A stretch of DNA of 5,577 nt, taken from sequence record NC_001420.2. One strand, written 5' to 3'. Both the position numbers and the translations under genes were made by a program. Shown piece by piece: positions 1 through 5,577 of this stretch (position 1 is its first letter; each line of letters opens with the position of its first letter). This stretch comes from Escherichia phage G4. The notes under the pieces are model-generated. The model saw only the letters and a list, made by a program, of their open reading frames with translations, ran no database searches and was not told the origin of the DNA.

Positions 1-3
1 TGC

Positions 4-33
4 TTGACTAATACTCAATCACCACTCTAATAT
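4..33 (+). promoter_or_regulatory. Candidate sigma70 promoter for gene A (PA): -35 TTGACT (4-9), 18-nt spacer, -10 TAATAT (28-33)
   Basis: Sequence match to -35/-10 consensus in the H-A intergenic region, where phiX174-type phages carry PA. The predicted start near nt 40 would give a leader containing the GGAGG SD for ATG 59. Prediction from the hexamers only. Confidence 0.4.
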
Positions 34-58
34 GCCTCCCATCAAACGGAGGCTTTTC

Positions 59-1723
59 ATGTTTAAAGTACATTCTGACTACTTCAGCAAACCTAACATC
101 GACGCAATCAAACCTCTCGTCGAAACTGCTGGTATGTCTGTTCTTACTCAATCTCCAAACCTCCGTATCTGGAAACAGTGCAATACTCGCATCAAATTAC
201 TGGAAGAAATCCTTGCTCACTATACAAATGGTATTCGCCGTGACGACAATGGTGACTTCTGGATGAATCCCAACTCTCAACTCGCAACTACTATTGCCTA
301 TCGTGCTCATCACAAAGGCCATAACCCTAAGTTCAAACAATACCCAGAAACCTTCACTCTGGACGACATTATTACTGGTAAACCAATCCCTCAAACTGCC
401 CCTGACGAATTACAACTCTCCGATGAAATCGTTGAAGACTATCGCCTTACAGTCCTCTCCATAATCGAAGAATTGCAAGAATGCTATGACGTGCTCGGAC
501 AACTTGATATTAATAACACTATAGACCACAAACCCCTCGGTAATGACCATTGGAACCTCCTCTATGAAAAACCCGTATACAAACATTGGTATCAGCTCGT
601 TTCAAATCGACCCCTTAAAGATATCCGCGCCGATTACAACTATGCAAAGGCTAAGGGTGTTAAAGATGAGTGCTCAAAAATCTTGGAGGAGTCAACTATG
701 AAGTCTCGACGTGGCTTTACCGTTCAAAGATTAATGAATGCTATGCGTACTGCCCATTCTAAGGGCTGGTATGTCGTATTCGATACTCTTACTCTAGCCG
801 ATGACCGCTTAAAGGATTTCTATGATAATCCCAATGCTCTTCGTGACTACTTCCGTGATATTGGTCGTATGGTGCTTACTGCCGAAGGTCGCTCGGTGCA
901 TGACTCATCTTCCGACTGCTATCAGTATTTTTGTGTGCCAGAGTATGGTACACAGCACGGTCGTCTACATTTCCACGCAGTGCATCTTATGCGCACACTT
1001 CCTCTGGGTTCTCTGCACCCTAACTTCGGTAAGCTGGTACGCATCAATCGGCAAATAAATAGCTTGCAAAACACGTGGCCTTATGGTTACTCTATGCCCA
1101 TCGCAGTCCGGTACTCCCAAGACGCATTCTCTCGCGCTGGCTGGCTCTGGCCTGTGGACTCAAAGGGTGAACCCCTTAAAGCTACCTCGTATATGGCTGT
1201 AGGCTTCTACGTTGCTAAATACGTTAACAAAAAATCAGATATTGACATGGCCGTAAAAGGCCTAGGGAATAAAGAATGGAACAATTCACTCAAAACCAAA
1301 ATCAACCTCATACCCAAGAAAGTGTTCAGAATACGAATGTCTCGCAATTTCGGAATGAAACTGTTATCAATGGCTCACCTGTCAGCGGAAACCCTGATGG
1401 AACTGACCCAAGTGGGTTACGACGTGACCCCGTTCAACAACATCTTGAAGCAGAACGCCAAGAAAGAGCTCAAATCGAGGCTGGCAAAGAAATCTGTCGC
1501 CGACGTTTTGGAGGCGCAACCTGTGACGACGAATCTGCTAAAATTCATGCGCAATTTGACCCGAACAATCGGAGCGTCCAACCTACAGAGTTTTATCGCT
1601 TCAATGACCACGAAATTAACAAGTACGGATATTTCTGATGAAACCAAAAACTACGTTGCTTCTGCAGGAATTGCTGTTGCTAACTTACGAATTAAATCGA
1701 AGTGGACTGCTGGTGGAAAATGA
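59..1723 (+). CDS. A: Replication initiation protein A (rolling-circle HUH endonuclease); 554 aa from ATG 59. The ORF track's upstream in-frame ATG at 32 would give 563 aa.
   Basis: Long ORF with HUH motif HFHAVH (nt 968-985) and the paired catalytic tyrosines in [15 protein letters not shown] (Tyr codons at 1208-1210 and 1220-1222), both typical of phiX174-type gpA. The C-terminal half aligns almost residue for residue with recalled phiX174 A (e.g. [29 protein letters not shown]). ATG 59 is preceded by GGAGG (48-52) at 6-nt spacing; ATG 32 has no Shine-Dalgarno (SD) and lies inside the candidate -10 element. Stop TGA 1721-1723 overlaps the gene C start (ATGA). Confidence 0.9.
510..539 (+). 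other. Origin of viral (+) strand rolling-circle replication; gpA recognition and nick site (conserved 30-mer)
   Basis: Exact match to the 30-nt origin CAACTTGATATTAATAACACTATAGACCAC, which is conserved among phiX174, G4 and relatives and lies inside gene A. In phiX174 gpA nicks between the G and A of CAACTTG^ATA, which corresponds to between nt 516 and 517 here. Confidence 0.88.
698..1723 (+). CDS. A*: A* protein, an in-frame internal initiation product of gene A (341 aa)
   Basis: In-frame ATG at 698 preceded by strong SD GGAGGA (685-690) at 7-nt spacing. The product begins MKSRRGF..., matching the recalled phiX174 A* N-terminus (MKSRRGFAIQRL...), and the 341-aa length equals phiX174 A*. 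Expression of A* from this genome is inferred, not seen. Confidence 0.6.
1276..1638 (+). CDS. B: Internal scaffolding protein B (120 aa), wholly nested in gene A in a different frame
   Basis: 120-aa ORF beginning MEQFTQNQ... and ending ...[45 protein letters not shown], closely matching recalled phiX174 B (MEQLTKNQ... [10 protein letters not shown]... FYRF...GYF). Same length as phiX174 B. Stop TGA 1636-1638 overlaps the K start (TGATG). Confidence 0.92.
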
Positions 1724-1808
1724 GGAAATTCAATCTCAACTTAAAAAACTCGAGGTCGTCTTACTTTGCAACCTTTCGCCATCATCTCAACGTGCTGGCA
1801 AAAACTGA
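1638..1808 (+). CDS. K: Protein K (56 aa), small non-essential protein overlapping the A/B end and the C start
   Basis: Not in the supplied ORF track because it is short. Hand translation from ATG 1638 gives [56 protein letters not shown], stop TGA 1806-1808. It matches recalled phiX174 K (…[20 protein letters not shown]…LLCDLSPS…) and has the same 56-aa length. It is in the third frame relative to A and C. Confidence 0.85.
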
Positions 1809-1974
1809 CGCCCTTGACGAGGAGAAATACTTAAATATGTTAGGTGCTCTCCTCAAGGACTGGTTCCGGTACGAAGAACATTTCGTGCATGGTAAACAAT
1901 CAATGCTTGACATACTGAAAGAACGTGGCCTATTATCCACATCGTCAACTGACACAAACCACAAAGGAAACTGA
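1720..1974 (+). CDS. C: Protein C (84 aa), involved in the switch to ssDNA synthesis and packaging
   Basis: ATG 1720-1722 overlaps the A stop (ATGA). Product [58 protein letters not shown]...ILKERGLL matches recalled phiX174 C ([42 protein letters not shown]...DWFRYESHFVHG...ILKERGLL). The ORF-track start at 1702 is a GTG extension and not the real start. Confidence 0.9.
1907..1936 (+). promoter_or_regulatory. Candidate sigma70 promoter for the late operon (PD): -35 TTGACA (1907-1912), 18-nt spacer, -10 TATTAT (1931-1936)
   Basis: Perfect consensus -35 and a 5/6 -10 inside the 3' end of gene C, about 40 nt upstream of the D start. This is the same relative position as the phiX174 PD promoter as I recall it. 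Confidence 0.5.
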
Positions 1975-1975
1975 A

Positions 1976-2434
1976 ATGTCTAAATCAAACGAATCTGCTG
2001 TAGCCTTTCAAACTGCTATCGCTTCTATCAAACTTATTCAAGCATCTTCTGTTCTTGACTTGACAGAGGACGATTTTGACTTCTTAACTCGCGACCGTGT
2101 CTGGATTGCTACCGACCGTTCACGCGCTCGCCGTGCTATCGAGGCTTGCGTATATGGAACACTGGACTTTGTCGGGTATCCTCGCTTTCCTGCTCCTGTT
2201 GAGTTTATTTCTGCCGTCATTGCTTATTACGTTCATCCCGTTAACATCCAAACCGCCTGTCTCATCATGGAAGGTGCTGAGTTTACCGAAAACATCGTCA
2301 ATGGTGTTGAACGCCCCGTTAAAGCCTCTGAACTGTTCGCCTTCACTCTTCTTGTTCGCGCCGGAAACAAAGATCTTATCGGTCACGCTGAAACAAACAT
2401 CCGTGAACAGTTACGCGCTCAAGGTGTCATGTAA
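1976..2434 (+). CDS. D: External scaffolding protein D (152 aa)
   Basis: ATG 1976 preceded by SD AAGGA (1964-1968) at 7-nt spacing. Product MSKSNESAVAFQTAIASIKLIQASSVLDLTEDDFDFLT...VWIATDRSRARR...ACVYGTLDFVGYPRFPAPVEFI.AVIAYYVHPVNIQTACLIMEGAEFTENI is near-identical to recalled phiX174 D, with the same 152-aa length. The track start at 1925 is a GTG extension. Confidence 0.95.
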   Translation: MSKSNESAVAFQTAIASIKLIQASSVLDLTEDDFDFLTRDRVWIATDRSRARRAIEACVYGTLDFVGYPRFPAPVEFISAVIAYYVHPVNIQTACLIMEGAEFTENIVNGVERPVKASELFAFTLLVRAGNKDLIGHAETNIREQLRAQGVM

Positions 2435-2444
2435 AGACCTTTGA
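2154..2444 (+). CDS. E: Lysis protein E (96 aa), nested in gene D in the +1 frame; single-gene lysis protein (MraY inhibitor class)
   Basis: ATG 2154 lies inside D in another frame. Product MEHWTLSGILAFLLLLSLFLPSLLITFIPLTSKPPVSSWKVL...LKPLNCS has the N-terminal transmembrane segment with the conserved LAFLLLLSL.LPSLLI.FIP core of recalled phiX174 E (MVRWTLWDTLAFLLLLSLLLPSLLIMFIP...). Stop TGA 2442-2444 lies 10 nt past the D stop. The track start at 2097 is a GTG extension. Confidence 0.85.
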   Translation: MEHWTLSGILAFLLLLSLFLPSLLITFIPLTSKPPVSSWKVLSLPKTSSMVLNAPLKPLNCSPSLFLFAPETKILSVTLKQTSVNSYALKVSCKDL

Positions 2445-2476
2445 TTTTATCGTCTTCACTTTTAAGGAGTTATGTA

Positions 2477-2554
2477 ATGAAAAAATCAATTCGCCGCTCT
2501 GGTGGCAAATCTAAGGGTGCCCGTCTCTGGTATGTAGGCGGAACACAATACTAA
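2477..2554 (+). CDS. J: Small basic DNA-binding/packaging protein J (25 aa)
   Basis: Not in the ORF track (too short). ATG 2477 preceded by SD AAGGAG (2464-2469) at 7-nt spacing. Hand translation gives MKKSIRRSGGKSKGARLWYVGGTQY, stop TAA 2552-2554. The C-terminus ARLWYVGG matches the phiX174 J C-terminus (…GARLWYVGGQQF), and the short 25-aa form is the G4-type J as I recall it. Confidence 0.85.
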   Translation: MKKSIRRSGGKSKGARLWYVGGTQY

Positions 2555-2562
2555 TCTTTTAT

Positions 2563-2587
2563 GTGGGACCGCGGTCCCACTCTATTT
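2563..2587 (+). terminator. Perfect 18-nt palindrome (GTGGGACCGCGGTCCCAC, 2563-2580) followed by a T-rich stretch (CTCTATTT); candidate partial terminator after gene J
   Basis: The palindrome is self-complementary over all 18 nt and would fold on mRNA as a GC-rich hairpin of about 7 bp. It sits in the J-F intergenic space, where phiX174-type phages have a leaky terminator. The downstream U-tract is short and interrupted, so termination would be inefficient. Confidence 0.45.
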
Positions 2588-2599
2588 AAGGATACAAAA

Positions 2600-3883
2600 A
2601 TGTCTAACGTTCAAACATCTGCGGACCGTGTACCTCATGACTTATCTCACCTTGTCTTTGAGGCTGGTAAAATTGGCCGCCTCAAAACTATCTCTTGGAC
2701 GCCTGGTGGTGCTGGTGACTCTTTCGAGTGTGATATGGTTGGCGCTATTCGTCTGTCCCCTCTTCGTCGTGGCCTCGCTGTTGACTCACGCGTTGATATC
2801 TTTCCTTTCTATATCCCACACCGTCATATCTACGGTCAGCAGTGGATTAACTTTATGAAGGATGGCGTTAATGCCTCCCCTCTTCCTCCTGTTACATGCT
2901 CCTCTGGTTGGGACTCTGCTGCTTATCTCGGTACCATTCCGTCTTCTACCCTTAAAGTGCCTAAATTCTTACATCAGGGCTATCTGAATATTTATAATAA
3001 CTACTTCAAACCGCCTTGGTCTGATGACTTAACTTACGCTAACCCATCCAATATGCCTTCTGAGGATTATAAATGGGGCGTACGTGTCGCTAACCTTAAA
3101 TCTATCTGGACTGCGCCACTTCCACCGGATACTCGTACATCTGAAAACATGACTACTGGTACATCCACTATTGACATTATGGGCCTTCAAGCCGCATACG
3201 CTAAATTACATACGGAACAGGAACGTGATTACTTCATGACCCGTTACCGTGACATTATGAAAGAGTTCGGCGGTCATACATCCTATGATGGTGACAATCG
3301 TCCTCTTCTGCTCATGCGCTCTGAATTTTGGGCATCTGGCTATGACGTAGACGGTACTGACCAATCTTCTCTCGGTCAATTCTCTGGTCGCGTTCAGCAG
3401 ACCTTCAATCACAAAGTCCCACGCTTCTATGTTCCTGAGCATCGCGTAATTATGACTCTGGCGGTTACTCGCTTTCCGCCTACTCATGAAATGGAAATGC
3501 ACTATCTTGTAGGTAAAGAAAACTTAACTTATACCGATATTGCTTGTGACCCTGCACTGATGGCTAACCTGCCACCTCGTGAAGTATCCTTAAAAGAATT
3601 CTTCCACTCCTCACCCGATTCTGCTAAATTCAAAATCGCTGAGGGCCAATGGTATCGTACACAGCCTGACCGTGTCGCTTTCCCATATAATGCTCTGGAT
3701 GGATTCCCGTTCTACTCTGCTCTCCCGTCCACGGAACTAAAAGACCGTGTACTGGTTAACACTAATAACTACGATGAAATCTTCCAGTCTATGCAGCTTG
3801 CACACTGGAATATGCAAACTAAATTTAACATTAACGTTTATCGTCACATGCCTACGACACGTGACTCAATCATGACCTCGTAA
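2600..3883 (+). CDS. F: Major capsid protein F (427 aa)
   Basis: Product MSNVQTSADRVPHDLSHLVFEAGKIGRLKTIS...SPLRRGLA.DS.VDIF.FY.PHRH.YG.QWI.FMKDGVNA.PLP...IDIMGLQAAYA.LHT.QERDYFM.RY...LPTTRDSIMTS is highly similar along its length to recalled phiX174 F. ATG 2600 is preceded by SD AAGGA (2588-2592) at 7-nt spacing. The upstream in-frame ATG at 2561 lies inside a palindromic hairpin, has no SD, and its 13-aa extension has no homology. Confidence 0.95.
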   Translation: MSNVQTSADRVPHDLSHLVFEAGKIGRLKTISWTPGGAGDSFECDMVGAIRLSPLRRGLAVDSRVDIFPFYIPHRHIYGQQWINFMKDGVNASPLPPVTCSSGWDSAAYLGTIPSSTLKVPKFLHQGYLNIYNNYFKPPWSDDLTYANPSNMPSEDYKWGVRVANLKSIWTAPLPPDTRTSENMTTGTSTIDIMGLQAAYAKLHTEQERDYFMTRYRDIMKEFGGHTSYDGDNRPLLLMRSEFWASGYDVDGTDQSSLGQFSGRVQQTFNHKVPRFYVPEHRVIMTLAVTRFPPTHEMEMHYLVGKENLTYTDIACDPALMANLPPREVSLKEFFHSSPDSAKFKIAEGQWYRTQPDRVAFPYNALDGFPFYSALPSTELKDRVLVNTNNYDEIFQSMQLAHWNMQTKFNINVYRHMPTTRDSIMTS

Positions 3884-3892
3884 CGCAACAAA

Positions 3893-3999
3893 GGCCGCCC
3901 CTCTACTGGTCAGATACCTGCCCAATGTGGGGCGGACCGTGCCTACGGAGATACTCGAGTCTCCGATACATGGACGGCGAAAGCCGCCGTCCCTACTGC
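3893..3999 (+). other. Cluster of three GC-rich stem-loops in the F-G intergenic region; candidate complementary (-) strand origin / primase recognition structure
   Basis: Stem-loop 1: CCGCCCC (3895-3901) pairs with GGGGCGG (3929-3935), 7 bp with a 27-nt loop. Stem-loop 2: CGGAGA (3946-3951) pairs with TCTCCG (3960-3965), 8-nt loop. Stem-loop 3: GGACGGCG (3972-3979) pairs with CGCCGTCC (3985-3992), 5-nt loop. A repeated motif GCCGCC..(C)CTACTG follows stems 1 and 3 (3894-3908 and 3983-3998). The G4 complementary-strand origin recognised by DnaG primase is known to lie in the F-G intergenic region and to consist of stem-loops. Confidence 0.6.
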
Positions 4000-4019
4000 A
4001 AAGCCAAAAGGACTAACAT

Positions 4020-4553
4020 ATGTTCCAGAAATTCATTTCTAAGCACAATGCTCCAATTAACTCTACTCAGCTTGCTGCTACTAAAACCCCAGCTGTAGCG
4101 GCACCTGTTTTATCTGTGCCTAACTTAAGTCGCTCTACTATTCTAATCAATGCAACAACCACAGCCGTTACAACTCATTCAGGCTTGTGCCATGTTGTTC
4201 GCATTGATGAAACAAACCCAACAAATCATCACGCTCTATCTATTGCAGGTTCGTTATCAAACGTCCCTGCTGATATGATTGCTTTTGCCATTCGTTTTGA
4301 GGTCGCTGATGGCGTCGTTCCTACTGCCGTCCCGGCCTTATACGACGTCTATCCAATCGAAACCTTCAATAACGGCAAAGCAATCTCATTTAAAGATGCT
4401 GTTACCATCGACTCACATCCCCGCACCGTCGGTAACGACGTTTATGCGGGAATCATGCTCTGGTCTAACGCTTGGACCGCCTCTACTATCTCTGGCGTCC
4501 TCTCTGTTAATCAGGTAAACCGTGAAGCAACCGTCCTTCAACCTCTGAAATAA
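4020..4553 (+). CDS. G: Major spike protein G (177 aa)
   Basis: Product begins [10 protein letters not shown] and ends ...LSVNQV.....LQPLK, matching the conserved N- and C-termini of recalled phiX174 G (MFQTFISRHN ... LQPLK) with internal motifs (YDVYP, VTID..PRT.GN.VY.G.M.WSN). SD AAGGA (4008-4012) at 7-nt spacing. Confidence 0.93.
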
Positions 4554-4563
4554 GGATTATCCT

Positions 4564-5577
4564 ATGTTTGGCTCTATCGCTGGCGGTATCGCCTCCGCAC
4601 TTGCCGGAGGCCTTATGGGTAAATTATTTGGCGGCGGTCAGTCCGCCGACTCTACCGGAATCCAAGGCAACGTCCTTGCTTCCGACAACAATGTTGTAGG
4701 TGCTAATGATGCTGGTATTAAATCTGCTATTCAGGGCTCTACTGTCCCTAACTCTCAGGAAGCTGCTCCCTCTGCTATCTCTGGCATCCTTGCCGACTCT
4801 GGCAAGCATGCGCTCTCGTCTCTTACCAATGCTGGTGCAAATAAACTCATGGAGGCTGTCGGCCTTTCTAAGTCTGCCTCTGACAAGGGCAAGGACACAA
4901 AAGACTATCTCGCCGCCGCATTCCCCGAGCTCAACCCATGGGAACGTGCTGGTGCTGGCGCTTCTAGTCCAGGCATGCAAGACGCTGGCTTCCAAAATCA
5001 GAAGGAGCTAACCAAGATGCAGCTTGACAACCAAAAGGAAATCGCTAAGATGCAAAACGAAACTCAGAAGGAAATTGCTGGGCTTCAATCTATTACATCA
5101 CGCGAAAATACTAAGGATACTGTCTATGCTCAAAATGAAATGCTCGCGTATAACCAAAAAGAGTCTATGTCACGCGTTGGCGCTATTCTCGAAAACACAA
5201 GCCTCACCAAACAGCAACAAACTTCTGAAATTATGCGGCAAATGCTTACTCAGGCTCAAACCGCAGGTCAATATTTTACAAATGACCAAATCAAGGAGCT
5301 TACGAGAAAAGTTGGTGCTGATATTGATGCTGTTCGCGCTAACACTGCACGCACCCATGTAGAAACCGACCGCTCAAAACAGGAAGTACAAAACTCCCGT
5401 TATGCCTCTTCTCAGGTAGGTAAAACCGCTAAGGACGTGTCCAATGCAATTACTGATACAGCTGGTTCTATTGTTGATTATTTTCGTGGTGCTGATCAAA
5501 AAGTGGCAGACGTTTACAACAACTATTTCAAAGATGGCAAATCGAAAGGAATAGAATCCAATCACCGCTCCAAATAA
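4564..5577 (+). CDS. H: Minor spike / DNA pilot protein H (337 aa)
   Basis: Product [26 protein letters not shown]...[24 protein letters not shown]...[77 protein letters not shown]...[31 protein letters not shown] is highly similar to recalled phiX174 H, with a glycine-rich hydrophobic N-terminus and a central coiled-coil-like region. SD AAGGA (4552-4556) at 7-nt spacing. Stop TAA is the last 3 nt of the window. Confidence 0.95.

Follow-up and report, generated by a model that had tools for sequence, protein, structure and literature searches.

Identity of the window

The genome sequence of Escherichia phage G4 dates from 1978, and textbooks cover its genes, origins, and capsid structure. In phiX174, complementary-strand synthesis needs assembly of a primosome (PriA-type), whereas G4 has a primase-only, three-hairpin origin in the spacer between genes F and G. 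NCBI record NC_001420.2 contains the sequence published by Godson et al. (1978), a circular, single-stranded genome of 5,577 nucleotides (nt) (PMC3217949). The DNA analysed here, called the window, is the whole of a stretch of 5577 nt with unambiguous bases throughout. Almost certainly, the window represents one complete circuit of the circular, single-stranded DNA (ssDNA) genome of Escherichia phage G4, a phiX174-type microvirus (species Gequatrovirus G4), given as the viral (+) strand and cut conventionally after the stop codon of gene H, and is the Godson et al. 1978 reference itself (EMBL V00657-type / RefSeq NC_001420).

The window resembles phiX174 (J02482.1; genus Sinsheimervirus). Both genomes carry the same 11 genes on one strand in the same cyclic order, an identical 30-nt origin for the gene A protein (gpA), and an H–A spacer with the same promoter and hairpin layout, but the phiX174 genome is 5386 nt rather than 5577 nt long and its proteins are 40–69% identical to those of the window. 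The window thus has the features of a phiX174-type genome, namely 11 genes with overlapping frames, the family domains, the 30-nt origin, and a length within 5.4–6.1 kb.

When the window is compared by megablast with 50,697 phage records, 568 records match. The top match is AF454431.1 (Escherichia phage G4 isolate Anc, 5577 nt, circular), with 99.6% identity over 100% of the window; positions 1–5577 pair with positions 1–5577 as a single + strand piece with a common first base. The lengths being equal, the window can be compared without gaps with AF454431, GQ153923 (G4_ancestral), NC13, and ID11. Of the 21 mismatches to AF454431, one falls on an N of that record and 20 are real differences; GQ153923 differs at 36 positions (99.4% identity), NC13 at 174, and ID11 at 181, with no indels in any of the four comparisons. 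A sequence-only reading of the window had given its length as that of the G4 genome and had predicted that alignment to G4, with substitutions and indels counted, would reveal no large indels; both statements hold.

The re-sequenced laboratory stocks AF454431.1 and GQ153923.1 share with the window the length, the start, the gene coordinates, and all cis elements, and differ from it by the 20 and 36 substitutions only. The wild isolates ID11 and NC13, which are also Gequatrovirus G4, have 5577 nt, an identical gene map, and ~96.8% identity to the window. Their 30-mer origin is identical to that of the window and their complementary-strand origin is nearly invariant; their 174–181 substitutions are mainly transitions and mainly synonymous.

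The protein sequences tie the window more closely to one record. In an exact-sequence look-up among ~15 billion proteins, all 10 distinct window proteins are found. In particular, A, E, F, G, and H are residue-identical to CAA24011.1, CAA24017.1, CAA24019.1, CAA24020.1, and CAA24021.1, respectively, of the original EMBL G4 entry, as well as to RefSeq entries in the range YP_009497836–846 and to Swiss-Prot P03640, P03644, and P03647. For E, G, and H the look-up gives no further accession, and for A and F the sole additional exact entry is one unnamed UniParc identifier each; no protein from any other isolate is listed for the five. Therefore, the window is G4 proper and not merely G4-like. The sequence-only reading had called it "G4-like", which is too weak as a label, and it had counted WA13 among the G4-like relatives, which is incorrect, WA13 being filed under Alphatrevirus. 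Set against the G4 reference as a whole (Godson 1978; CAA24011–CAA24021; NC_001420.2, YP_009497836–846), the window has the 5577-nt length and 10 of 10 distinct proteins in common, with no difference detected at the protein level, and it contains a single PstI site, as does the reference.

The whole-genome identities of 99.6% and 99.4% are well over the 95% species-level threshold, and the window belongs to the species Gequatrovirus G4 on every testable criterion. GenBank records place the species in Microviridae / Bullavirinae (order Petitvirales), and the 2026 NCBI taxonomy in Eubullaviridae / Bullavirales / Microviricetes. The sequence-only reading of the window as a complete, unit-length G4-type genome without novelty is supported by the indel-free collinearity and the exact protein matches. 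The finding is already known, and nothing sets the window apart from the known reference.

Bases private to the window

The 20 real differences from AF454431 were compared with 14 other full-length G4-group genomes (12 distinct sequences), some of which are ~3.3% diverged. All 20 are private to the window:

87, 432, 761, 775, 1016, 1044, 1045, 2230, 2706, 2709: private substitution sites
2804, 3418, 3443, 3586, 4097, 4098, 4966, 4969, 5214, 5492: private substitution sites, continued

The private changes do not resemble natural divergence. Fourteen of them (70%) are non-synonymous and fall in A, E, F, G, and H, compared with 24–30% between Anc and the wild isolates (Fisher p = 7e-5 to 8e-4). 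Transversions account for 9 of the 20 (45%), compared with ~20% naturally (p = 0.008–0.05). In addition, eight of the sites form four pairs no more than 3 nt apart, such as a TC/CT swap at 1044–1045 and an AG/CA change at 4097–4098.

The crystal structure of the G4 capsid (PDB 1GFF) offers another view of these sites. Chain 1 has the re-sequenced state at four of the four private F positions, with Val-Val at residues 36–37, Ser69, and Gly282, where F of the window has Gly-Gly, Pro, and Arg, respectively. Chain 2, which is protein G, equals the window. With phiX174 as outgroup, 5 of the 14 amino-acid sites side with the re-sequenced state and 1 sides with the window. At residue 26 of E the window has Thr, where phiX174 and every other G4 genome in the comparison have Met. 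We conclude that the 20 private bases are probably reading errors of the manual sequencing of 1978; less likely, they are idiosyncrasies of that 1978 stock.

Codon 379 of F (3734–3736) shows a further disagreement with the structure. It encodes Glu in the window (PSTELK) and Asp in chain 1 of 1GFF (PSTDLK); AF454431 has the same bases as the window at 3734–3736 and thus also encodes Glu379. The Asp in 1GFF may be a deposition or stock variant.

Alternatively, the window could be a distinct natural or laboratory G4 isolate that carries 20 real differences and whose proteins equal those of the reference by coincidence. The phage collection holds no nucleotide match of 100%, as would be expected of such an isolate. 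Moreover, DNA synthesised to the Godson sequence is claimed to give plaques, and the sequence was concluded to be "accurate enough" (PMC3217949), which counts against lethality of the private states and, if taken at face value, makes all 20 compatible with viability. However, the five independently variant proteins A, E, F, G, and H are exact matches to CAA240xx / YP_0094978xx entries and to no entry of another isolate, so that coincidence is implausible, and the high proportions of non-synonymous changes and transversions and the four close pairs are unlike those expected of an isolate that diverged naturally. We also treat the plaque claim with caution, because the hosts (DH5alpha and BL21) and the particle size (~50 nm) in the synthesis study are unusual for G4. 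A distinct isolate is therefore very improbable, and the Godson reference remains the preferred identification.

Probable circular form and replication origins

The window ends exactly on the H stop codon, TAA at 5575–5577, and begins with the H–A spacer at 1–58, as the sequence-only reading had noted. It contains no terminal direct repeat of at least 8 nt, and its length and first base are those of G4-group records annotated as circular. The H terminator hairpin and the A promoter-like site lie across the 5577/1 boundary from H, as in phiX174. Therefore, the sequence would be functionally sensible only as a circle. In phiX174 the same junction is internal to the record, with the H stop at 3917, a 63-nt spacer with the same hairpin, and the A start at 3981.

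We searched the phage collection with a 500-nt probe that crosses the 5577/1 boundary, by megablast and then by the more sensitive blastn. By blastn, three records cover at least 80% of the probe, among which we examined the more distant phage lillemer (MN850599, a wastewater assembly). Its H–A junction lies in the middle of the record, and one blastn piece spans 98% of the probe. Within the lillemer locus, the H stop is at position 1750 and the A start at 1809, giving a 58-nt spacer, the length of 1–58 in the window.

Several observations weigh against taking the window as one full turn of the Godson reference. The closest nucleotide match is only 99.6% identical, and the tie to NC_001420 / V00657 rests on the proteins and not on synonymous or non-coding sites. 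Circularity and single-strandedness are not readable from a linear string. Every close G4-group record is linearised at the same base and splits the megablast probe into two halves, giving no independent evidence for the junction. An exact 28-mer across the junction has no match in IMG/VR, and an exact 24-mer has none in metagenome contigs. We thus infer the circularity of the window and do not observe it. A search with protein C for independently assembled contigs returned only GenBank records with the same start.

A shorter junction sequence, the 18-mer CAAATAATGCTTGACTAA, matches two IMG/VR contigs (L016 at 705–722 and L017 at 4219–4236), which have no other blastn similarity to the window. 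We rejected both as chance matches; they show that 18-mers can match by chance in a collection of such size.

The window could also be a piece of a larger replicon that happens to have been excised at unit length, such as an integrated prophage, concatemeric DNA, or an insert cloned into, e.g., M13 or a plasmid. Cloning of G4 origin fragments into M13 is known (the M13Gori construct, PMC6783573), and the window stops at 1 and 5577 without flanks. Such a cut would, however, have to yield exactly the unit length, begin at the base where GenBank records conventionally start, and leave no terminal repeat. The open reading frames (ORFs) and Pfam matches of the window include no integrase, recombination module, or other non-microvirus protein. 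No match to the window is found in 5,426 complete E. coli genomes (20,395 replicon records, chromosomes and plasmids), and no relative of F is confirmed in GTDB representative genomes by a scan with a few exact F peptide patterns, which reaches close relatives only. PhiX174-type microviruses are generally regarded as strictly lytic. We regard an origin from a larger replicon as exceedingly unlikely, less probable still than a distinct isolate, and return to a free G4 genome of unit length.

Two replication origins can be placed in that genome:

500–529, + strand: viral (+) strand origin, 30-mer CAACTTGATATTAATAACACTATAGACCAC, inside gene A; identical to phiX174 4299–4328
3884–4019, + strand: F–G spacer, G4 complementary-strand origin (G4oric)

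The phiX174 segment 4299–4328 spans the annotated rep_origin for viral-strand synthesis at 4306. The 30-mer is identical between the window and phiX174 though their A proteins are only 63% identical, and it is found exactly in 15 of 15 related microvirus loci, comprising 14 G4-group genomes and lillemer. GpA is presumed to nick between G506 and A507. GpA itself has the features of an HUH endonuclease. The HUH motif HFHAVH lies at nt 968–985 (residue 304) and the two-tyrosine motif YVAKYVNK, with the Y-x-x-K-Y arrangement, at nt 1208–1231 (residue 384), and the protein matches Pfam families PF05840 and PF23343.

The F–G spacer contains three hairpins, III (3893–3938), II (3946–3965), and I (3972–3992). 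As ssDNA, 3884–4019 folds with -29.1 kcal/mol (z = -4.7), and 0 of 200 shuffled sequences fold as well. As published, the G4 origin comprises three stem-loops and, on their 3' side, a 5'-CTG-3' whose T is where primer synthesis begins; the 28-nt primer has no C before position 9, and the 18 nt after that C lack A (PMC6783573). In the window, a CTG primase start signal lies at 3996–3998 and the 28-nt primer template at 3970–3997, the reverse complement of which, AGTAGGGACGGCGGCTTTCGCCGTCCAT, has the published properties (C at 9, 18-nt A-free stretch). In addition, the mini-hairpin GCGAAAGC, reported at the G4 priming site (PMC13037366), is found inside hairpin I at 3977–3984. The Shine-Dalgarno sequence of G follows at 4008–4012. 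Among G4-group relatives the region differs by no more than 3 bases. Judged by its sequence, the window carries a predicted G4-type, primase-dependent complementary-strand origin.

The life cycle in which these elements would take part is established knowledge of G4 and phiX174; what this analysis shows is only that the required sequence features are present. On incoming DNA coated with SSB, the three hairpins of the F–G spacer (3893–3992) would stay free of SSB. Host DnaG primase would bind the hairpins and, opposite T3997 of the CTG, begin a primer no longer than 28 nt, after which Pol III would complete the replicative form. Transcription of one strand would proceed from the promoter-like sites before A (4–33) and D (1907–1936), and hairpins downstream of J and of H (34–53) would act as leaky terminators. 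GpA, with its HUH motif and two tyrosines, would nick the + strand in the 30-mer (500–529, G506/A507) and start rolling-circle replication. Protein C would switch replication to the packaging of ssDNA into procapsids of F, G, H, B, and D, where J would condense the DNA. Finally, protein E, encoded inside D, would lyse the host.

Genes, non-coding signals, and discordant bases

Eleven genes are annotated at the same coordinates in four independent G4-group records. At those coordinates, 11 of 11 frames in the window begin with ATG, have a length that is a multiple of three, and contain a single, terminal stop and no internal stops:

59–1723, + strand: gene A, rolling-circle replication initiator, 554 amino acids (PF05840, 205 bits; identical to CAA24011.1 / YP_009497836.1)
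698–1723, + strand: gene A*, in-frame internal start in A, 341 amino acids (GGAGG upstream of the ATG)
1276–1638, + strand: gene B, internal scaffolding protein, 120 amino acids, in another frame overlapping A (PF02304; exact look-up)
1638–1808, + strand: gene K, 56 amino acids (PF12283; exact look-up)
1720–1974, + strand: gene C, DNA maturation / switch to ssDNA synthesis, 84 amino acids (PF12025)
1976–2434, + strand: gene D, external scaffolding protein, 152 amino acids (PF02925; exact look-up)
2154–2444, + strand: gene E, lysis protein, 96 amino acids, within D in another frame (PF04517; identical to P03640 / CAA24017.1)
2477–2554, + strand: gene J, DNA-binding core protein, 25 amino acids (PF04726)
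2600–3883, + strand: gene F, major capsid protein, 427 amino acids (PF02305, 552 bits)
4020–4553, + strand: gene G, major spike protein, 177 amino acids (PF02306; identical to PDB 1GFF chain 2)
4564–5577, + strand: gene H, minor spike / DNA pilot protein, 337 amino acids; the stop TAA is the last three bases of the window (PF04687; identical to P03647 / CAA24021.1)

All 11 genes lie on the + strand in the cyclic order of phiX174 J02482, as the sequence-only reading had proposed. The 10 distinct proteins all score above the Pfam gathering score for families Phage_GPA, Phage_B, Protein_K, Phage_C, gpD, Microvir_lysis, Microvir_J, Phage_F, Phage_G, and Microvir_H. Two or more annotated genes share 1392 nt of the window, a count that includes A*, nested in frame within A. 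The N-terminal hydrophobic segment of E, with Pro21, is present.

Two genes have an in-frame ATG upstream of the annotated start: A, at 32 (9 codons upstream), and F, at 2561 (13 codons upstream). Each of these ATGs is at the 5' foot of a spacer hairpin, 2 nt before the hairpins at 34–53 and 2563–2580, respectively. The annotated A start at 59 is used in all records and in Swiss-Prot. Chain 1 of PDB 1GFF begins at Ser2 of annotated F; therefore, the F start at the ATG at 2600 is confirmed.

Outside the annotated genes lie 282 nt (5.06%), divided among six pieces; that at 3884–4019 is the F–G spacer described above. The other five are as follows, with one hairpin listed separately:

1–58, + strand: H–A spacer, with promoter-like site, hairpin and T-run, and gene A Shine-Dalgarno sequence
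1975: single base between C and D
2445–2476, + strand: spacer with J Shine-Dalgarno sequence AAGGAG (2464–2469)
2555–2599, + strand: J–F spacer with F Shine-Dalgarno sequence AAGGA (2588–2592)
2563–2580, + strand: perfect, GC-rich hairpin of 7 base pairs in the J–F spacer, GTGGGAC-CGCG-GTCCCAC (z = -2.8)
4554–4563, + strand: piece with the ribosome-binding site of H; H Shine-Dalgarno sequence AAGGA at 4552–4556

The statement of the sequence-only reading that all of the DNA is accounted for agrees with this inventory, in which each of the six pieces has a recognisable element and to which scans for RNA genes add nothing: an Rfam scan of the window at E <= 1 gives no match, and a scan for tRNA and tmRNA (ARAGORN) finds none in the window.

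The H–A spacer is the most densely used of these pieces. A sigma-70-like site consists of TTGACT at 4–9, an 18-nt gap, and TAATAT at 28–33, and is the presumed PA by its position. The presumed H terminator follows at 34–53, a GC-rich hairpin of 6 base pairs and TTTT (RNA fold z = -3.5). The hairpin has a 3' arm that includes GGAGG (48–52), located 6 nt before the A ATG, which by its sequence would double as the Shine-Dalgarno sequence of gene A. The hairpin also overlaps the stretch immediately downstream of the A promoter-like site, so that three signals share ~25 nt. The layout in phiX174 is alike, with the same GCCTCC...GGAGGC and T-run.

A strong promoter-like site at 1907–1936, in C just upstream of D, comprises TTGACA, an 18-nt gap, and TATTAT (11 of 12 matches) and is presumed to be PD. 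The B promoter was not located in the window. The hairpin at 2563–2580 may be a terminator-like or an mRNA-stabilising element. Counts of consensus matches over the whole window are not above shuffle expectation, with 10 promoter-like sites against 8.0 +/- 2.8 and 6 terminator-like sites against 4.4 +/- 2.0, and only sites homologous in position to known phiX174/G4 signals were interpreted. Inside H, a sigma-70-like match on the + strand at 5024–5051 (TTGACA, 16-nt gap, TAAGAT; 10 of 12) has no gene start near it; because promoter-like sites do not exceed the shuffle expectation, this match is probably due to chance.

GC skew is negative in every 500-nt segment along the sequence, so that the cumulative skew declines from -0.31 to -2.83 without any reversal, a pattern consistent with coding on one strand and with a single-stranded genome that replicates by rolling circle.

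Apart from the 11 genes, the window contains 14 ORFs of at least 60 amino acids. Twelve of these are open, with the start codon kept, in 12 of 12 distinct G4-group relatives, although at a divergence of no more than 3.3% this comparison is without power. The longest, which is among the 12, has 123 amino acids and a TTG start and lies on the - strand at 4624–4995, antisense to H. In phiX174, disruption of 71 of 82 conserved cryptic ORFs leaves viable phage, and the 11-gene annotation has been judged complete (PMC6883844). This result speaks more strongly for a complete 11-gene annotation than does the comparison of relatives, and by extrapolation to G4, the unannotated ORFs of the window are unlikely to be genes.

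The value of recognising the window is one of curation and not of discovery: a scan should identify such a stretch as a reference phage genome. The window differs at ~20 bases, with 14 amino-acid changes, from every re-sequenced G4-group genome examined, and in F also from the crystal-structure sequence. These discordant bases matter to anyone who synthesises DNA from the record, models structures with it, or takes it as the ancestor in experimental-evolution comparisons. It is unlikely, though less so than either alternative origin of the window, that the private sites are genuine alleles of Godson's 1970s stock (F Gly-Gly 36–37 and Arg282; E Thr26) or that an unannotated ORF, such as 4624–4995 antisense to H, is functional. 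If the alleles were genuine, G4 would tolerate radical substitutions at sites that are invariant in 14 other G4-group genomes.

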